The notes under the pieces: generated by a model
The model's database searches: none
What the model was told of the DNA's origin: nothing
What the model saw: only the letters and a program-made list of their open reading frames with translations
NCBI GenBank assembly: GCA_965223845.1
Contig: CBDCXR010000004.1
Span: 1,984,001-2,048,000, forward strand
DNA: 64,000 nucleotides
Origin: Planctomycetota bacterium
Lineage (GTDB): Bacteria > Planctomycetota > UBA8108 > SXIK01
Reading direction: 5' to 3'
In this document: positions 23,871-57,867 of the stretch, in pieces
Numbering within the stretch: position 1 is the stretch's first letter
How the letters are laid out: each line of letters begins with the position of its first letter
Program-made: the position numbers and the translations under genes

Positions 23871-26633
23871 TCAGGCGTTCGCCGTCTCTTCGGCCGGCGT
23901 CGCGCCGGATGCCTTCGTTGCCGCCGCGTCTTTCGCCGCCGTTTTCTTCGTTGCACGCTTCTTCGTGCTCGATTTCTTTGCGGCTTTCTTCGTCGTCTTT
24001 TTCTTCGCGCCGCTCTTCTTCGCAGACGCTTTCTTCGTCGCGGCCTTCTTTTTCGCGGTCTTCTTCTTCGTCGTGGACTTTTTCTTCTTCTTCGACGGAC
24101 CCGCCGCTGCCCGCGCGCGGATCAGCTCGACGGCGGCATCGAGCGTCACCTCATCGGGATCGTCTCCCCGGGGAATCGACGCGTTGGTCGTGCCGTCCGT
24201 GACGTACGGCCCGTAGCGCCCGGCGAGAAGCTTGATCGGTTCGCCCGAATCGGGGTGCGCGCCCAGCTCGCGCAGCACCTTCGGCGTCCTCCGCCCGCCC
24301 TTCTTCTCCTGCTTGAAGAGGACGAGCGCCGCATCGACCGTCACCGAGAAAACCTCCTCGGGCTCGGCGAGACTGCGGGTGTCGGTTCCCCGCTTCACGT
24401 ACGGGCCGTAGCGGCCGTAGTCGACGAAGATCTCCTCTCCCGTCTCGGGGCAGGTTCCGATCGATCGCGGGAGCGAGAGGAGCGAGAGAGCCTGCTCGAG
24501 CGACACCTCCGCCGCAGACATGCCGGGAAGGAGCGACTTCATCTTCGGCTTCGAGCCGTCTTCGCCGTCGCCGAGCTGAACGTACGGACCGAACCTACCG
24601 GTCTTCACGAACACCGGCTGCCCGGATTCCGGATGCTCACCGAGCTGCTTCGGCCCCTGATCCTCGGCGAGGAGCTCGAGCGCACGCTCGAGCGAAAGCT
24701 CGTCGGGAGCGAGGTCGTCTGGAATCGACGCGCGATCGTCGCCGCACTCGAGATAGGGCCCGTAGCGACCGACTCGGATATTGACGTCGACGCCCTTCGG
24801 CCCCTTCCCCAGCGGCAAGGTACACGACTCGCGCGCGTCGATCTCCTGCTCGACGAGCGCCTTGAGCCCTTCGGCACTATCGCTCCCGAAGTAAAACGAC
24901 TTCAGGTAGGGGATGCGATCCTTGTCGCCGAGAGAGATCGCGTCGAGCTCGTCTTCGAGTCGCGCCGTGAACTCGACGTCGACGAGATCCGCAAAGTGCT
25001 TCTCCATGAGCTGAACCACCGCGAACGCGGTAAAGCTCGGCACGAGCGCATTGCTCTGCTTGCCAACGTAGTTCCGCTGGATGATGGTGTCGATGATCGA
25101 CGCGTAGGTACTCGGCCGGCCGATTCCGCGCGCTTCGAGCTCCTTGACGAGAGATGCCTCCGTGTAACGCGCGGGGGGCTGAGTGGTGTGACTTCTCGCT
25201 TCGAGCTTTTCGCACGCGAGCGCGTCGCCCTCCGAAACGTTCGGGAGAACGACCTCCTTGTCGGCGAGCTCGGCGTCGGGGTCGTCGGCGCCCTCGACGT
25301 ACGCGCGGAGGTACCCGGGAAAGTCGATCGTCTTCCCGCTCGCTTGAAACACCGCGTCGCCGCACTCGACCCGCACCGCGATGCGATGTCCGCGGGCGTC
25401 GGCCATCTGGCAAGCCATCGTGCGCTTCCAGATGAGCTCGTAGAGCTTGAGCTCGGTCGCGCTCACTTCCCGCGCGATGTCTTCCGGTCGGCGGAAATCA
25501 CCCGAAGGCCGAATCGCTTCGTGTGCCTCCTGCGCGTTTTTCACTTTGGTGCGGAACTGCCGCACATCCGGGGAGAGGAAATCCGAACCGTAGAGCTGTC
25601 CGATCAGACCGCGAACGCTCGTCACCGCTTCCTTCGCGAGCGAGGTCGAGTCTGTTCGCATATACGTAATGAAACCGTTCTCGTAGAGCCGCTGCGCCGC
25701 CTGCATCGTCTGCCGGGCGGAGTAGCGGAGCTTGCGGTTCGCTTCCTGCTGGAGGGTGCTCGTAGTAAAAGGAGCCGACGGCTTCGATGTGTACGGCTTC
25801 TTCTCGACCGACTCGACCTTCCAGTCGCCGCTCTCGAGCCGCCCGCGGAGCTCCTCGGCTCGCGGCTCGTCGAGAAGGACGACGCCGTCCGTCTTCTTCA
25901 GCTTGCCCGTGGCCGCATCGAAGTCCTTTCCCGACGCGATGCGATCGCCGCCGAGCGTGGCGAGCGTCGCTTCGAACTCGCGGCCGTCGCTCGCGGCGAA
26001 ATTCGCGCGCAGATCCCAGTACGAGCTTCGGACGAATCGCTGGCGCTCGCGCTCCCGTTCGACGACGAGACGCACGGCGACCGATTGCACTCGACCCGCC
26101 GAGAGACGCGGCTTGATCTTCCGCCAGAGAATCGGAGAAACCTCGTAGCCGTAGAGGCGGTCGAGGATGCGACGCGCCTCCTGCGCCTCGACGAGCCGAT
26201 CGTCGAGATCGCGCGGGCTCTCGAGTGCTTTCTCGATGGCTTCGCGCGTGATCTCGTGGAAGACGAGCCGCCGCTGCGGCACCTTCGGCTTCAACACCTG
26301 GAGGAGATGCCAGCTGATCGATTCCCCCTCGCGATCCTCGTCAGTCGCGAGGTAGAGGACCTCGGCCTCCTTGAGGAGAGCCTTCAGCCGCGTCACCTGC
26401 TTCTTCTTGTCGGCGGGGACGACGTAGACCGGCTCGAAGTCGTTCTCGACATCGATCCCGAGTCGCGCCCAAGGCTGCTCTTTGACCGCCGCCGGGATCT
26501 CCTTCGCCGAGTTCGGCAGGTCCCGGATGTGGCCGATACTCGCCTCGACGACGAAGTCGTCGGGAAGAAACGTCGACAGCGTTCTCGCCTTCGCGGGTGA
26601 CTCGACGATGACCAAGCTCTTGCTCTTACCCAC
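23871..26633 (-). CDS. topA: DNA topoisomerase I with Lys-rich C-terminal tail
   Basis: [48 protein letters not shown]-terminal repeats; GTG start at 26633. Confidence 0.97.
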
Positions 26634-50932: not shown

Positions 50933-53193
50933 GCTTCTCGTTCCGCGTGCAGCTCCGTTTCCTCGACCGCCGCCGACGGTTCCAAGCCTCGAAAGAAGCG
51001 CCACGTCGAGAATGCCGTGACGAGAAAGACGAGTCCCGCTACCGCGAAAAAATGCCGGAATCCGAACGCGATCGGAAGAAAAAACGAGCAGGTTGAACCG
51101 AGTCCAGCCCCGATCGCATCGAAAGCGAACACCGCGAGCGGATTCCGCGCCGATCGCTCGAACAGCGCCGGAAAGAAACTACCGGTGACGAAAGCGACCG
51201 GCGAGACCAAGACGATCATCGCGGTGGGGGACAGCGACTCTTGCGCGAAGTGAATCCCTACGACGAGCGCGCAGGCGAGAAGCTGAAGCGGAACGCGGAG
51301 GCGAGGCGCGATGACGACGCTGCCGAGACCCGACACGACGAGGAAGCTGATCGCGCCGAGGACGAGCGCGTCGTGGAACACGTAGAGCTTCTTGAAGAGC
51401 GCGAGAATGAGGTAGTGCTCGAAGAGGACGAAGTTCGCCCCGATCAAGAAGCTCAGCACGGCGACTTGCGCGTAGCTGCGCCCCGCAATGCGCGGATCTC
51501 CACTGCGCCGGAGTCCCCACGCGAGCAGCGCCCCGATCACGAGCAGCGTCCCGCACGCGATGGCGAACAGCGAGTAAAGCTGCTCCATGCTGAAGATGTG
51601 GCGAACGTTTCCGGCGAGAAAGGGCTGCTCGTCGGTGATCGGCCGGAACTCCGGATCCGCGACGACGACGAGCTCTTGCACCCGCGTGTTTCGATCGGGT
51701 GGAAGGACGCCCGACTCCGCCCGGAGGTAGGATTCGAGATCTTCGGCGGTGGGGAGCGGGGTCGAATCACTCTTTGCCGCGAGGATGAGATACTCTCCGG
51801 GAGGGGAACCGAACGCGCGGTACGCTCTCGCCCGCAGCCCGAGACCTTGATCGCCGAGCGAACGCACGTACTGGCGCGTCAGGATCTCCTTCGGGTCGAG
51901 TCCACTCGGATACCAGATCGCGAGGATCCCCTGGTCCGTCAGACGATCTCGCAGTGTGCGGTAGGCGTCGATCGTCCGAATCATGTTTCCGGGCTCGAGC
52001 ATCATCTGCGGATACCCGCCGACGCTGGGGAGGAAGATGAGATCGAACTGCTCTTCGGTCGACTCCATGAAGCCCCGCGCCTCACCGCGATGGAGCTCCA
52101 CGTTCTCTCCCCCGCCGTAGACGTCGTCGAACGCGGACGCCAGCCCGCCTTCGGTCACCCCCTCGATCACCGCCGGCTCGAGCTCGATCGCACGAATCTT
52201 CCGATAGCGCCGACCGGATCGCTTCGCCCACTGAACTTGCCGTCCGCCACCCGAGCCGATGATCGCAATCGCGCCATCGTCCGGCACGAGCTCGAGGGGA
52301 ACGGCGCCGATCATCCGCGCGTTGAACCCGGTTCCCTGCGAGTACTCCCACTGGAAGAGGTCGTTATAGAATCCGGCCTGCTCGCGGGAGGCGTCGCGTC
52401 GGAGGATTTCCGTGAGGCTGTAGCGCCCCCAACGCTGGAACTTGATCTCGTAGCCACGATCGACGAACTCCTTCGTCGATTGCATGCCGGCGCCCTTGTA
52501 CCAGTCGAGAAACCGCTCCTCGAATCCGAAGGCGGGGATCGTACCGAGAAGGACGAGTAACACGGCTTCGAGGGAGAAGATCCGCCGCGCACGAACCGTC
52601 GGTGCGACGAGCGCCGAGGCCCCGCAGACGAGCGCCACGCTCACGACGAGGATTTGACTGACGCCCACCGCGTGAAAGCGATGTAGCGCCAGCTCCACGC
52701 TCACGTAGGCGGACGCGGCGCCGAAGAGATAGAGCGCGTAGACCGTGCGCATCCGGTGCCGCATCGCTCTCAAGCCGAGCTGGTAGCCCAGGTACTCGCT
52801 CAGGCCGTACATGCAGAAGAAGGGAACAAAGAGCGCGGTGAACGTGCCCATCTGCAGGATCAGCCGGCCGAGCTCGACCTCGAAGAGGTGGGCTCGCAAG
52901 TAATCGAAGTGCTTGCACGAAAGGCTCGCGAAGACGGTGACGATCATCACCGCCTGGAGAAGAACGAGCGACTTTTGAAACGACGCCAAGTCTAGTCGGA
53001 AGTAGCGCGCTCCGAGAAACGCACCCACCGGGAAGCCGACGAAGAGCAAGTCGAAGAAGAGCGACGGCATGATGAAGAACGCGAGCAGCTTCCAGGCAGC
53101 AAGCGTGAAGAGAACCGTCGCGAACGACAGCGAGAAGAGAGCGAGCGTGAGCCGCTTCGGGCTTGGCCCACCAGTCGGGTCGAGAGAGGTCAT
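50929..53193 (-). CDS. Polytopic membrane protein with central spermidine-synthase-like SAM-binding domain
   Basis: About 7 N-terminal TMs; IIGSGGG, AIELEP, GEARGFM, FDLIFL, RPITDEQPF; about 6 C-terminal TMs. Confidence 0.82.
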   Translation of the reverse strand: MTSLDPTGGPSPKRLTLALFSLSFATVLFTLAAWKLLAFFIMPSLFFDLLFVGFPVGAFLGARYFRLDLASFQKSLVLLQAVMIVTVFASLSCKHFDYLRAHLFEVELGRLILQMGTFTALFVPFFCMYGLSEYLGYQLGLRAMRHRMRTVYALYLFGAASAYVSVELALHRFHAVGVSQILVVSVALVCGASALVAPTVRARRIFSLEAVLLVLLGTIPAFGFEERFLDWYKGAGMQSTKEFVDRGYEIKFQRWGRYSLTEILRRDASREQAGFYNDLFQWEYSQGTGFNARMIGAVPLELVPDDGAIAIIGSGGGRQVQWAKRSGRRYRKIRAIELEPAVIEGVTEGGLASAFDDVYGGGENVELHRGEARGFMESTEEQFDLIFLPSVGGYPQMMLEPGNMIRTIDAYRTLRDRLTDQGILAIWYPSGLDPKEILTRQYVRSLGDQGLGLRARAYRAFGSPPGEYLILAAKSDSTPLPTAEDLESYLRAESGVLPPDRNTRVQELVVVADPEFRPITDEQPFLAGNVRHIFSMEQLYSLFAIACGTLLVIGALLAWGLRRSGDPRIAGRSYAQVAVLSFLIGANFVLFEHYLILALFKKLYVFHDALVLGAISFLVVSGLGSVVIAPRLRVPLQLLACALVVGIHFAQESLSPTAMIVLVSPVAFVTGSFFPALFERSARNPLAVFAFDAIGAGLGSTCSFFLPIAFGFRHFFAVAGLVFLVTAFSTWRFFRGLEPSAAVEETELHAEREA

Positions 53194-53628
53194 GGCTCCG
53201 TCGGTCCATCCGTTCGCGCCCTAGCGCCGCTTGAACGGATCCTTGGCTTCAGTCTTCGAGTCGAGGGTTGGGTCGTCCACCGGCGGCGGTTGCGCGCCGC
53301 ACTGGCGCGACGAGGAACGCCGCGCCGCGCGCTCTCCCGGCGAGAACCGACCGTGCGGCCTCGTGGGGGTGTTCGCGGTTCCGCCGAGTCGACGTACGAG
53401 AGACCGAACTCGTCGCGGCTCGGTCCCGTCTCTGTATGGGCGACCAGTGGAGCTCGGCGGCGCTTCTCGGCGCTCGCAAGCGCGAGTTGCGGAATCGGTC
53501 GATGGCCACCGGAGCCACGACGGCGGCGGGGGAGAGCGCGGTCACCCGAGCGATTGTACCTCGCGCGCGAGTCGTCTCGAGAGCGCAAAGGACGTGCCAC
53601 CGTTCACTCGCGCGCTCGTGATCTAGAC

Positions 53629-53673
53629 AAAAAAAGAAGCCGGCAGCCCTCAACGGGATACCGGCTTCTTTTT
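53629..53673 (-). terminator. Intrinsic terminator (potentially bidirectional) ending the histone-like gene transcript
   Basis: A7-GAAGCCGG...CCGGCTTC-T5; on the minus strand a hairpin followed by U7, about 185 nt after the stop at 53858. Confidence 0.88.
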
Positions 53674-53857
53674 GCGACCTCAAGGCCGTCTCGCTCAGCA
53701 AGCCATCCGGAGAGTCAGACCGATGGGCTCCGACTTGCGTCCGCTCAACTCGAGACCGACCGTCTTTCGCGACCCTCGCGGATCGCCTTCGACCGCCGGC
53801 GCTGACCGGTCCGAACGCGACTGGAGCTCAACCACCGAGCGCTCTCTCGGAGAGCTG

Positions 53858-54226
53858 TTAGCGCCGACGCGCCTTCTTGCGAGTGGCCTTCTTCTTGGCC
53901 TTCTTGCGAGTCGCCTTCTTCTTGGCTTTCTTGCGAGTGGCCTTCTTCTTGGCCTTCTTGCGAGTCGCCTTCTTCTTGGCTTTCTTCTTGGTCGCTTTCT
54001 TGCGAGTGGCCTTCTTCTTAGCCTTCTTCTTGGCCTTCTTGCGAGTCGCCTTCTTCTTTGCGACTTTCTTCTTCGCTTTGCGCTTGGTCTTCTTCTTCGC
54101 GACCTTCTTCTTCGCGGCCTTCTTCTTGGTGGCCTTCTTCTTAACCTTGCGCTTGGCCTTCTTCTTCGCGACCTTCTTCTTCTTGGCAGCCTTCTTCTTG
54201 GCTACTCTCTTTTTCTTCTTCGCCAT
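53858..54226 (-). CDS. Histone H1/Hc2-like highly basic protein
   Basis: AAAGGAG RBS; 122 aa using only M/A/K/R/V/T (counted 69 K, 12 R, no acidic residue); KKATRKKAK repeats. Confidence 0.9.
   Translation of the reverse strand: MAKKKKRVAKKKAAKKKKVAKKKAKRKVKKKATKKKAAKKKVAKKKTKRKAKKKVAKKKATRKKAKKKAKKKATRKKATKKKAKKKATRKKAKKKATRKKAKKKATRKKAKKKATRKKARRR
53870..54060 (-). repeat. 27-bp coding tandem repeat (KKKATRKKA)
   Basis: Repeated (C/T)TTCTTGCGAGT(G/C)GCCTTCTTCTTGGC units on the plus strand, with synonymous variation. Confidence 0.8.
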
Positions 54227-55925
54227 ATCCGTTCTCCTTTGAAAGGCGTAAGAGAAACCCTAACAGTCCGCTGAAGGAGCGCTCCACGACAAACGCCGAG
54301 CGACGCTTCGATCAGGTCAGCACCGAGGTACGCAGGAGGTTGCCCTTCCGCGAGGCTCGAGTCGAAATGGGCGAACCGCATTCGACGCTGGTGGGTCTGA
54401 CTCTCTCAACGAGCTGTGAAGACACCGACAACACTCGAGTTCGTCCGGCGAAGCCCAACACAGTGCTTCGTTACCAAACGATCTCCTTAGCTCCCTGCGA
54501 GGAACCACGGCCAGGCGTCTTCCATGCCTGACGCCGGATCGACCGTGTCGATCCCGCCGTGGGCCGATTCGCGAGCACTGACTCCGAGTCTGACGCGTCG
54601 AAGACCTCGGGGCTGGCTCGAGTGACGGACCGCGCGAGATCGTGGTCCGCTCACAGGTCACTCACCGGTTCTACCTTCTCCTCTCGCGTCGTCGCCGTTC
54701 ACTTCGGCTCCCCGACTCGCGCTCGGCGCCGTTCACTAAGCTTGGCGGCCGAATTCTTCCGGCCGCCGAACCGAACGACTCTCCGGCGATGGTCAGGGTG
54801 CCGCGCGCGCAAGGCTTCGGAGTCGAGAGCATGCCTCTCTCTCCTCCCGTCATGCCGAGCTGCCCGATGGAGCCCGAACAGCAGACGCGACTGTAACCTG
54901 TTCCGTGAACCTCTTCCTTCAACACCTCCGCCCGCGCGCGCCGTCGCGATCGTTTGATCCGCAACTCCCGCGATCTCGGTCACCCGAAAGAGCGGGCTCA
55001 GCTTCATTCGCATCGCGATCTGCGTGGCTTCGTTGCTCACGCTGTGAACGCTACGCAAGGCTCGATTGCTTTTTGTACAAGGTCGTCAAAAAAGTAAAGA
55101 ACATTTTGCTAAAATTGCCAGAAAAAAGTTGACGCGCACTCTGCTATCGCAACAGACATCGCAAGTGCGATTCGCGCAGCGGACGCGCGTTCTTACATGC
55201 GAGTCCGTCGTCGACGCGCAGACGTGAACGAGTCTCCCTCACACCCGTCGAGACTCGCCTCCGCGCCTCGTTCGCAGCGTGTCGGCGATCTCGGTTACGC
55301 TGAGCCATCGTCCGCGATGTTCACGCCGGCAGCACTCGCACCGACACGTCTCCGAGAGAGTCGAAGGAGAACGCGAAAAGCCCCAAGCCGCGCGAATTCA
55401 TCGAAGATTTCGCACATTCTCGCGAAATCGACGCTCCGCTCGTCGGCTCGTACACGACGGCGTAGAGGACGTGAACGCGCGTCCGGAGCGGCGTGGGAAC
55501 GCGCTCGCGTCGACGCTCGGCTCGACTCGAGCCCAGCGCGAGCGCGCGAGCGCCGCGGCGGATGGCACCTCGTCTTCCGAGGGACGCGAACAGCGCGTTC
55601 GGCAACGCGGGAATCGTCGACGAGGAACGCGGTGCGATCGCACCTAGCGACTCCTTCGTCGCTAGTTCAAAGCGACAAAAAAAACTTCGCTAGTGCGTTC
55701 CGAGAAGTCGCGCGCACAGATGCCCTCGTCGCGTCGCAAACCGGTTCCACGAGGAAGGTCGACCGCGCTCCCGCGCTCGCGAACGCTCGTCTACGATGCA
55801 CGCTCGAACTCTCCGATCGCGGCGCTCGCGTGCGCTGAGGCACACTCCTCCCACGCTCGGCGCACTGAGGTTTTTCGTCCTTGTTCGGGTCGCTTCGGGT
55901 CGCGTTCCCGCAGGGGGTTTCGGGA

Positions 55926-55954
55926 TTGCATCGCTATTTGGCGAGGCCTACAAT
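55926..55954 (+). promoter_or_regulatory. Sigma70-type promoter upstream of the cohesin/dockerin gene
   Basis: TTGCAT-N17-TACAAT. Confidence 0.7.
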
Positions 55955-56451
55955 AGGCTCCAATCTCTCGTTTCGCGCGCTGAGTACGGCGCTTCGGAGG
56001 GACCCTTCAGAGGTCTCAATCTCGTCGCGAGTCGCGGCGAAGGGCTCCCTTTGCCCTCTCTCCGAACGCACCGAGTTCTCGGCGGAAGGCGGCGCTTCAG
56101 GGTCACGCGCGGATCGCTTCGATCGGCCGGATGACGGGCGCCCGAGCGGTCAACGAGACGACTTAGCAGAACGTGGCCGACTCCCTCCCGGACGAAGTCC
56201 TTCTGCGGCCAAACGAGGAATTTCCCATCAATTCACAATGGACGGGGTCGCGGTCGTAAGAGAGGGCCGCGATGGCCGTCGCTTCGCGGTCTCGATTCCG
56301 GGTCTCTTTACGTTCCTAGTTTCGACCATCGGCAGCCCTCGAGGCATTCGCGGCTCGAGCGCGAGTGGCGGGGCGCGGAACGGCAACCGAATCGGACGTC
56401 TAAATCTGTGCAAATAGGTTGTTTCGGCAGGAATACATCTGAGTGATCGAC

Positions 56452-57867
56452 ATGATTCGACGTGCTTTGCTCTCCACCTTCGTCGCTCTCGTTGCCGCCG
56501 GTTTCGGCGGTGAGCTGAGAGCCGAGAACGCAGTGGGACTCGGAGATGGCCAAGCCGATCCCGGCCAGGTCGCCGACGTTCCCGTGACCGTCAGCGGCGA
56601 CGCAGACATTCAAGGCGCCGTAGTGGTCTTCGAGTGGGCCGCCGACCGCGGGACCGGTGAAAGTCTCGAGGCGGGCGCTCCCGTCGCGAACGCAGACCTC
56701 GTCGTGACTCGCGTCGAGAGCTCGTTCATGGTGTTTTCGGTCGTCATGGACACGGACGGCCAAGACGCGGCGGTGATTCCGGCCGGCAACGGCACGGTCG
56801 TCGCGACGGCCAAGATTCGCTGCGCCGCCGACAACGACGGGACGCGCACGACGATCCGTCTCGTCGACAACAAGTACGCCACGATCGACGGCGGCCCCAC
56901 GCTCACCAACCTGATTGTGAGCGGCGGTCAGTCGATCTCGGCGAACGAAGGTCTCGTGCACCAGGCCGGTTCGTTCACGTGCGGCGAAGTCGGTGGTGGC
57001 GACGGTCCGCCAATGTTCGCCTGCGGCGGTGAGCTCGACGACAACGGCATGCCGACGGACGTCGTCGGTCGCCACGAGACCGCCCCCACGGTGTGCTTCT
57101 ACTACAAGTCGCCCGGCCGCGGGATCGGCGATCACGAAGACGAGATCCAGGGCCTCTCGATGGCCGTCACGTACGACTGCGCCCTCACCGCGCAGGAAGA
57201 CACGTTCTCCCTCGAGGGCGGTGTCCTCGCGGCGGACGGCGTCAACGCCGAGTTCGTCCACATCGACGTCGATAACAACAGCCGCGGCACCGACGGCGAC
57301 GGCTGCGAGTTTATCCTCGGCGTCCTCGTGGATGCCGTCGCGCCCTTCGACGGGCGTACGCTTCCGTCGACCTCGACGTTCAGCCGCCTCTTCTGCATGG
57401 ACTTCTTCATCGAGGATGACGCCATGTGCGATCACTGCCTCTGGATCAAGTTCATGGACGGGCTGAACGGGAACGGCACCCCGCCGGTCAAGAACCTCGT
57501 CGCCATCGACTTCTTCTCGCAGCGTCCGCAGACGATGGACTGCCGCGTGTGCGTCGAGGGCGAGGCGGAGTTCATTCGCGGCGACTGCAACTTCTCCGGC
57601 GAGATCATGATGGGCGTCGATATTGCCGACGCCGCGGCGATGGTCGGCCACTTCTTCCTCGATCCGCCCTGGAAGTTCGACGCGCCCTGTCAGGATGCCT
57701 GCGACGCGAACGACGATGGCCGTCTCGACGCGGCAGACGTCGTGTTCATTCTCGAATACCTCTTCGTTCCGGAGAAGCCGCAGCCGCCGGCCCCGGGCCC
57801 GATCTTCCCCGGCTTCGACGAGACGCCGGACGAGCTCGGCTGTGAGGGTGGACCGAAGAAGTGCTGA
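56452..57867 (+). CDS. Secreted protein with two cohesin-like domains and C-terminal dockerin-like domain
   Basis: Signal peptide; PGQVADVPVTV...IQGAVVVFEW and IQGLSMAVTYD...AEFV...FILGVLVD cohesin-like beta patterns; FIRGDCN...DIADA...CQDACDANDDGRLDAAD; strongly C/G-ending codons. Alternative start GTG 56443. Confidence 0.78.
   Translation: MIRRALLSTFVALVAAGFGGELRAENAVGLGDGQADPGQVADVPVTVSGDADIQGAVVVFEWAADRGTGESLEAGAPVANADLVVTRVESSFMVFSVVMDTDGQDAAVIPAGNGTVVATAKIRCAADNDGTRTTIRLVDNKYATIDGGPTLTNLIVSGGQSISANEGLVHQAGSFTCGEVGGGDGPPMFACGGELDDNGMPTDVVGRHETAPTVCFYYKSPGRGIGDHEDEIQGLSMAVTYDCALTAQEDTFSLEGGVLAADGVNAEFVHIDVDNNSRGTDGDGCEFILGVLVDAVAPFDGRTLPSTSTFSRLFCMDFFIEDDAMCDHCLWIKFMDGLNGNGTPPVKNLVAIDFFSQRPQTMDCRVCVEGEAEFIRGDCNFSGEIMMGVDIADAAAMVGHFFLDPPWKFDAPCQDACDANDDGRLDAADVVFILEYLFVPEKPQPPAPGPIFPGFDETPDELGCEGGPKKC

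Follow-up and report, generated by a model that had tools for sequence, protein, structure and literature searches.

Genes for polycations resembling histone H1 are expected to be under tight transcriptional and post-transcriptional control, as an excess of their product is harmful; chlamydial hctA and hctB (Hc1 and Hc2) and Pseudomonas AlgP are among the closest described systems. Strong bacterial promoters, for their part, combine an A/T-rich UP element with an operator (the rrn P1-type architecture). Here we examine the upstream region of an H1-like polylysine gene of an uncultured planctomycete, which lies in a stretch of 64,000 nucleotides (nt; C4:1984001-2048000, hereafter the window) and in which a first, sequence-only reading had seen either the 5' part of a long transcript or a separate large structured non-coding RNA (ncRNA). 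We find that the body of this region (54430-55060) is ordinary, fast-evolving non-coding DNA and not a conserved structured RNA. On balance, the locus probably consists of a conserved cis-regulatory island (55067-55123, minus strand), an unconstrained leader whose length varies between relatives, and the ribosome-binding site (RBS) of the polylysine gene (53858-54226, minus strand). Full-text literature searching, within the text accessible to it, returned nothing about polylysine genes or about promoter motifs of planctomycetes.

The island emerged from a DNA search against 40 relatives, among which no genome of the same genus was present; nearly all other matches fell on the lysine codons of the gene, which are of low complexity. 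In G003, which belongs to the same family and a different genus, it is 98% identical over 56 nt; weaker matches occur in G016 and G012, and all matches fall within 55062-55127. An alignment of eight sequences has 31 invariant columns out of 57. Read on the minus strand, the core is TTCTTTACTT-N3-TGACGA-N2-TTGTACAAA, with an A/T-rich GGCAATTTTAGCAAAATG ahead of it, in a segment where GC content drops to 0.49 (55000-55199). This core is present as a single copy in the genome, and a scan with the exact pattern recovered it in four species genomes and five metagenome contigs. We then built a sequence-only model from eight copies and searched it in 59 genomes of the class, seven of which carry the island: all four of family f1, three of 14 in f2 and none of the 41 in the other families (f3-f7).

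What links these copies is the gene that follows. Of 12 island loci in total, 11 are followed after 336-843 nt by a polylysine open reading frame (ORF) in the same orientation, and at the twelfth the contig ends 389 nt past the island. The 11 downstream ORFs are homologous and lysine-rich, start with MAKK and range from 15 to ~120 amino acids (aa). The divergent neighbour gene is kept in just three of nine other loci compared (L016, L021 and L022); it is thus the polylysine gene, and not the neighbour, that the island accompanies. We therefore take it to be the presumed promoter and operator of that gene, on the grounds of position, gene linkage and conservation rather than of a motif match. 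The sequence-only reading had named an AT-rich block as the likely promoter zone; that block does prove to be conserved, single-copy and always upstream of the same gene, although its sigma-70 score is at background level.

The leader itself behaves differently. Measured from island to ATG, it spans 843 nt here and 764, 640, 455, 417, 396, 366, 337 and 336 nt elsewhere, and the alignment holds at its two ends only, namely at the island and over ~30 nt before the ATG. MAFFT alignment of the interior revealed no shared block, and comparisons with seven related loci by blastn-short and tblastx returned only chance-level matches. Even in G003, where the neighbouring 474-aa protein is 60% identical, matches are confined to the island and to the RBS context together with the polylysine gene. 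The leader stretch also matches nothing else in its own genome, and no part of it is repeated there. The best reading is that the interior is selectively unconstrained and that 54430-55060 is probably a long untranslated leader.

At the gene-proximal end, the conserved translation-initiation context (54227-54258, minus strand) consists of a pyrimidine-rich tract, then AAAGGAGAACGGAT, then the ATG. Across nine aligned loci, GGAGAACGG followed by ATGGC is invariant, and besides the island this is the only leader block recovered by blastn, with 20 nt at 95% identity to G003. All nine loci carry a pyrimidine-rich tract of the CTCTT or CCTTT type directly upstream of AGGAGAACGG (54227-54300, minus strand). 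In folds of single sequences, the tract could form a weak hairpin that sequesters the Shine-Dalgarno sequence.

The gene encodes a protein of 122 aa (MAKKKKRVAKKK...; ~52% lysine, histone-H1-like) that begins MAKKKKRVAKKKAAKKKK... and matches nothing in Pfam or NCBIfam; the GC content at third codon positions is 0.82-0.88. Beyond it, a bidirectional intrinsic terminator (53630-53675, both strands), in which an A-run is followed by GAAGCCGG...CCGGCTTC and a T-run, is the strongest local fold that we scanned (z-score -4.4 on the minus and -3.7 on the plus strand) and likely marks the 3' end of the polylysine transcript. A lysine-codon-rich stretch with 68-74% identity to the gene lies at ~23974-24094 of the window and others lie at C4:1664158, 2180627, 5320861 and 7174968; these are probably lysine-rich segments of other proteins.

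Taken together, the arrangement suggests a simple course of expression. RNA polymerase would initiate within the island or shortly beyond it, transcribe ~840 nt of leader and then the 369-nt gene, and stop at 53630-53675, which would yield an mRNA of ~1.4 kb. Regulation would sit at the two conserved ends: the island would act as promoter and operator, to which the polylysine protein, with its preference for AT, might itself bind, and the other regulatory end would be the pyrimidine tract, which is invariant and precedes AGGAGAACGGAT and the ATG, with the hairpins between them incidental. A transcript of this size is economical because we found no intrinsic terminator on the minus strand at 54227-55060, that is, between island and gene, and a strong one after the gene. 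The ~1.4-kb transcript proposed in the sequence-only reading thus appears the most economical in extent, as the distance from island to terminator is also ~1.4 kb, but its 5' part would be an mRNA leader and not an ncRNA. The direction and start of transcription, the read-through of the leader and any autoregulation are inferences, the direction from the linkage of the island to the polylysine gene.

The setting in which this arrangement occurs is exceptional for the genome. The latter (G000) is a metagenome-assembled genome (MAG) of 7.93 Mb in four contigs, 91.7% complete, and the stretch is present as contigs in four sequencing runs, all from one study. Between a 754-aa ORF (minus strand, start 53193) and a 474-aa ORF (plus strand, start 56443), the gene-poor interval shows codon periodicity only in the 122-aa ORF. 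The spread of GC content between codon phases is mostly below 0.2 at 54240-56440, with a maximum of 0.18 at 54240-55260, compared to 0.3-0.55 in the flanking genes, and a Pfam search of the ORFs within this stretch gave no match. As codon periodicity is missing, 54227-56442 is non-coding, which bears out the sequence-only reading on this point, and no protein was found encoded there. With its 2,070 nt, the periodicity-free run 54171-56240 ranks second in length on the 7.87-Mb chromosome. It is exceeded only by three neighbouring runs combined, at 2.871-2.878 Mb (C4:2870881-2877510), which we take to be the rRNA operon because they contain tRNA-Ile and tRNA-Ala. On that presumption, no non-coding run of the chromosome outside the rRNA operon is longer than 54171-56240.

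Several observations weigh against the arrangement that we favour. The genome has clear TTGACN-N17-TAnnAT promoters at its tRNA genes (median score 14.2), and the island does not score as a canonical promoter by this measure: its best pairs score 11.9-12.5, close to the median of 11.3 for random 150-nt pieces, in line with the earlier remark that the AT-rich block holds no clean -35/-10 pair. The near-symmetry of the island is, as far as the motif alone goes, compatible with either direction. A separate sigma-70-like candidate, TTGAGA-N18-TCGAAT (54380-54409, minus strand), lies 153 nt before the ATG; its score of 14.7 exceeds that of 99% of random 150-nt pieces (99th percentile, 14.0). Finally, an excess of stems over shuffled sequences and a whole-leader z-score of about -2 leave room for weak lineage-specific structure.

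Within the island, the pairs TTTACT-N15-TACAAA and TTTACT-N17-CAAAAA both score 11.9. The TTTACT block is accompanied by two invariant -10-like hexamers, CAnAnT (55108-55103) and TACAAA (55077-55072), each of which could serve as a -10 element, and the conserved blocks stand two helical turns apart.

The alternative that fares best, a possible one that we nevertheless regard as doubtful, is that the region is an untranscribed spacer. The island would then be a distal operator or activating site, or a promoter of the plus strand, and the gene would be transcribed from the proximal promoter at 54409-54380. The background sigma-70 score of the island and the high score of the proximal candidate both speak for this, as does the related family f6, where a conserved promoter-like TTGCAT-N18-CATACT stands only ~130-170 nt ahead of the ATG. 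The island also contains a motif resembling an extended -10 element, TGnTAAAAT, that faces the plus strand (TCAAAA-N18-TAAAAT, score 14.2). However, TTGAGA-N18-TCGAAT is without a counterpart in the eight other leaders, and the orientation of the island and its linkage to the polylysine gene are kept while the divergent gene changes. The plus-strand gene, moreover, has a candidate promoter of its own: TTGCAT-N17-TACAAT (55926-55954), the top score in the interval at 15.4, faces the 474-aa gene and would imply a 5' untranslated region of ~480 nt.

Distinctly unlikely, in our view, is a lineage-specific structured leader or large ncRNA that, for example, controls mRNA stability or acts as a polycation sponge and evolves too fast to be aligned between genera. 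All hairpins that the sequence-only reading reported on the minus strand are present, at the given coordinates or a few bases away. The strongest local one, GGCGGCCG/CGGCCGCC (54744-54767), has eight perfect G+C-rich base pairs (bp) around an 8-nt loop and can be extended to 10 bp; no U-run follows it and relatives' leaders hold no block that aligns with it. A perfect 8-bp hairpin with a 3-nt loop, GGATCGAC/GTCGATCC, lies at 54536-54554, the stem search found 6-bp stems at 54626-54649, 54514-54535 and 54449-54470, and a GAGAG/CTCTC stem is seen in the sequence near 54826. The direct repeat was confirmed as well: two copies of AGTGAACGGCG (54689-54737, minus strand; 15 nt, 93% identity, 34 nt apart) share an 11-nt exact core at 54693-54703 and 54727-54737, a match that arises in 4% of shuffles and is not seen in relatives, and a repeat search of the region found no notable tandem or terminal inverted repeats. 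The GC-alternating long-range stem does appear in the minimum-energy fold, but this is trivial, as any (GC)n run can pair with itself.

In number, too, the stems seem at first to favour structure. Six stems of at least 6 bp compare to 2.4 ± 1.4 in dinucleotide shuffles (2% of shuffles reach six), and two of at least 8 bp compare to 0.15 (1% of shuffles). Against the non-coding background of the genome itself, however, 23% of 473 non-coding-like 706-nt tiles have at least six stems of at least 6 bp and 8.5% have at least two of at least 8 bp, with a genome-wide density of 5.5 6-bp stems per kb. Because its stem counts lie within this background, the region is not hairpin-rich for this genome.

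Folding energies point the same way. The 834-nt leader has a z-score of -1.9 in sense and -2.7 in antisense orientation (20 shuffles each). In sense 150-nt windows across 54400-55074, z-scores range from -3.0 to +2.2 with a mean of about -0.5, and window means are about -0.5 to -0.7 on both strands; such similarity between strands is found here and in seven other leaders. In favour of structure, one sense 150-nt window comes near -5 (20 shuffles), all eight lineages tested have long leaders (336-843 nt), seven of the eight have a slightly negative mean z-score, and the non-coding run is exceptional for the genome. Yet folding is equally stable or more so on the antisense strand, so that the signal reflects DNA composition or palindromes and not RNA-specific pairing, and no block, length or position is common to the leaders.

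Comparison with known RNA families agrees with this. With Rfam 15, including GOLLD, ROOL, OLE, HEARO, riboswitches and leaders, the Infernal-type search that the sequence-only reading had suggested gave no hit at gathering threshold in the whole window. At E values up to 10, the interval 53100-56500 gave six sub-threshold hits that we judged to be noise; the best, Thr_leader at 24.9 bits compared to a threshold of 55, falls on the terminator at 53630-53675, with look-alikes on both strands. As for the general marks of a structured ncRNA, the leader interior cannot be aligned with seven related loci, and we found no sense-specific stability beyond background. The idea of a separate large structured ncRNA is thus not borne out, and the follow-up effort that it would have called for is saved. 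What remains is a 57-bp single-copy element, present in two families, that marks the control region of an H1-like polylysine mini-gene in uncultured planctomycetes.

More specific roles for the leader were also considered. Binding by CsrA, raised earlier on account of several GGA motifs, is rejected: csrA (PF02599) was not found in the 91.7%-complete genome, although the control matched in three known genomes, and GGA is not enriched (18 compared to 17.8 ± 2.9 expected; ANGGA, 5 compared to 3.6 ± 1.7). A transcription attenuator finds no place either, as the leader contains no terminator and the 54744-54767 hairpin is not followed by a U-run.

A bolder version of the favoured arrangement, one we consider very improbable, is a feedback device in which the polylysine protein shuts its own promoter at the island and binds the leader as a length-dependent sponge, thereby repressing translation where the RBS context is invariant. 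If true, selection would act on the length and charge capacity of the leader and not on its sequence, which would explain both the exceptional non-coding run and the presence of long leaders (336-843 nt), conserved only at their ends, in every lineage.

It is extremely unlikely that a decayed gene or mobile-element remnant has inflated the intergenic region. Such an origin would fit the length of the run, which in 7.87 Mb only the rRNA operon exceeds, and the great variation of leader and flank lengths between relatives, but no residual codon periodicity, Pfam match, notable repeat or second copy of any part in the genome was found, and 225 ORFs of related loci match only the island, besides three marginal 18-19-aa hits near the terminator (E values 0.002-0.004). 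Remnants of a pseudogene or of a neighbour gene are rejected likewise, as the ORFs of related loci leave no detectable trace in the leader.

Other identities of the island itself were tried and set aside. An RNA hairpin within it is rejected because the consensus energy is -0.01 kcal/mol; there are no compensatory pairs, and no conserved RNA fold was found. Read as an upstream ORF (ATG TTC TTT ACT ... TAG), the island has neither a conserved start, which varies between ATG, TTG, ATA and ATC, nor a conserved stop, which the copies in the window and in L022/L023 lack; among 10 distinct sequences, the codons TTC, TTT, ACT and AAA show no synonymous change, and the sole change of TAC, in G001, is non-synonymous. 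Pairing between GUUCUUU of the island and GGAGAAC of the RBS (five Watson-Crick and two G-U pairs), judged by inspection only, would give a weak helix that we take to be a coincidence, and the G is not conserved in G016 and G001.

A replication-terminus site was likewise rejected. A Xer/dif site has two ~11-bp inverted arms around a centre of 6-8 bp and lies at the GC-skew switch. In the island, 15 nt separate the conserved blocks, whose symmetry is no more than loose, and the Xer architecture is lacking. The cumulative GC skew has its maximum at 1,955,711 and its minimum at 5,806,263, which places the island (~2,039,100) 83 kb from the maximum; in G003 it is ~330 kb from the skew switch. A pattern search with a dif consensus found nothing near the island. 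The window lies within the replication-terminus plateau (C4 ~1.80-2.20 Mb), and the polylysine gene points in the direction of fork movement.

On the right-hand side of the island, 55140-55925 shows no conservation either. The 474-aa protein beyond it (56443-57867, plus strand) carries a hydrophobic segment at its N-terminal end and is without a match in Pfam and NCBIfam, and in the L022 metagenome contig two partial copies of its gene flank the island and the polylysine gene. GC-rich codon positions are in phase 0 at 56460-56640 and in phase 2 from ~56640 on; for this ORF, the listed start, or the listed frame over roughly the first 60 codons, may not be correct. Elsewhere in the genome, ARAGORN reports two tRNA-Pyl and one tRNA-SeC among C4:1643846-1643919, 6791124-6791203 and 7438635-7438732; the two tRNA-Pyl calls, which fall in coding-looking sequence, may be spurious.

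Set beside known systems, the locus resembles large ncRNAs of the GOLLD, ROOL, OLE and HEARO type in being a non-coding stretch of several hundred nt with several G+C-rich hairpins, but differs in that it has no Rfam match, no conservation and no strand-specific stability. With rrn P1-type promoters, it shares a conserved A/T-rich block of 50-60 bp in G+C-rich DNA, conserved blocks about two helical turns apart and a small, probably highly expressed downstream gene; the hexamers and spacing of the island, in contrast, do not match the TTGACN-N17-TAnnAT of this genome's tRNA promoters, and the genome has only one such site. Like chlamydial hctA/hctB, from the same superphylum, and Pseudomonas AlgP, the gene has a small, extremely lysine-rich and presumably DNA-condensing product, although it matches no family in Pfam or NCBIfam and neither a small RNA partner nor a special sigma-factor promoter was identified.

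The nearest comparison comes from families f4 and f6 of the same class, whose polylysine genes are preceded by a conserved region of ~170 nt with GAGGGG...CCCCC hairpins that end at the Shine-Dalgarno sequence. The GCATCAGG-GAGGGG...CCCCC element is present in nine f4/f6 loci (L002, L003, L006, L007, L009-L012) and has no match in the window with up to three mismatches. Conversely, the island profile finds nothing significant in the f4/f6 loci: a visual resemblance to their promoter-like block (...ATGTTC.TT.C...) is unsupported by nhmmer, whose one match covers 11 nt at an E value of 8.7, and homology between the two is rejected. In the f6 loci L006, L007, L009, L010 and L011, a conserved leader lies downstream of the TTGCAT-N18-CATACT, and its hairpins, CCCCTC..GAGGGG and GAGGGG..CCCCC, adjoin the Shine-Dalgarno sequence; a conserved terminator lies ~600 nt upstream, followed by TTGAAC...TTACCAT. 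Both types share a lysine- and alanine-rich mini-gene beginning MAKK... and encoding 15 to ~130 aa, one locus per genome and conserved non-coding sequence ahead of the gene, whereas here the island stands 336-843 nt upstream, the RBS context is another and the sequence between is unconserved. That the island type and the f4/f6 leaders differ in this way suggests that the control of these polycation genes is unusually elaborate and varies from one lineage to another.

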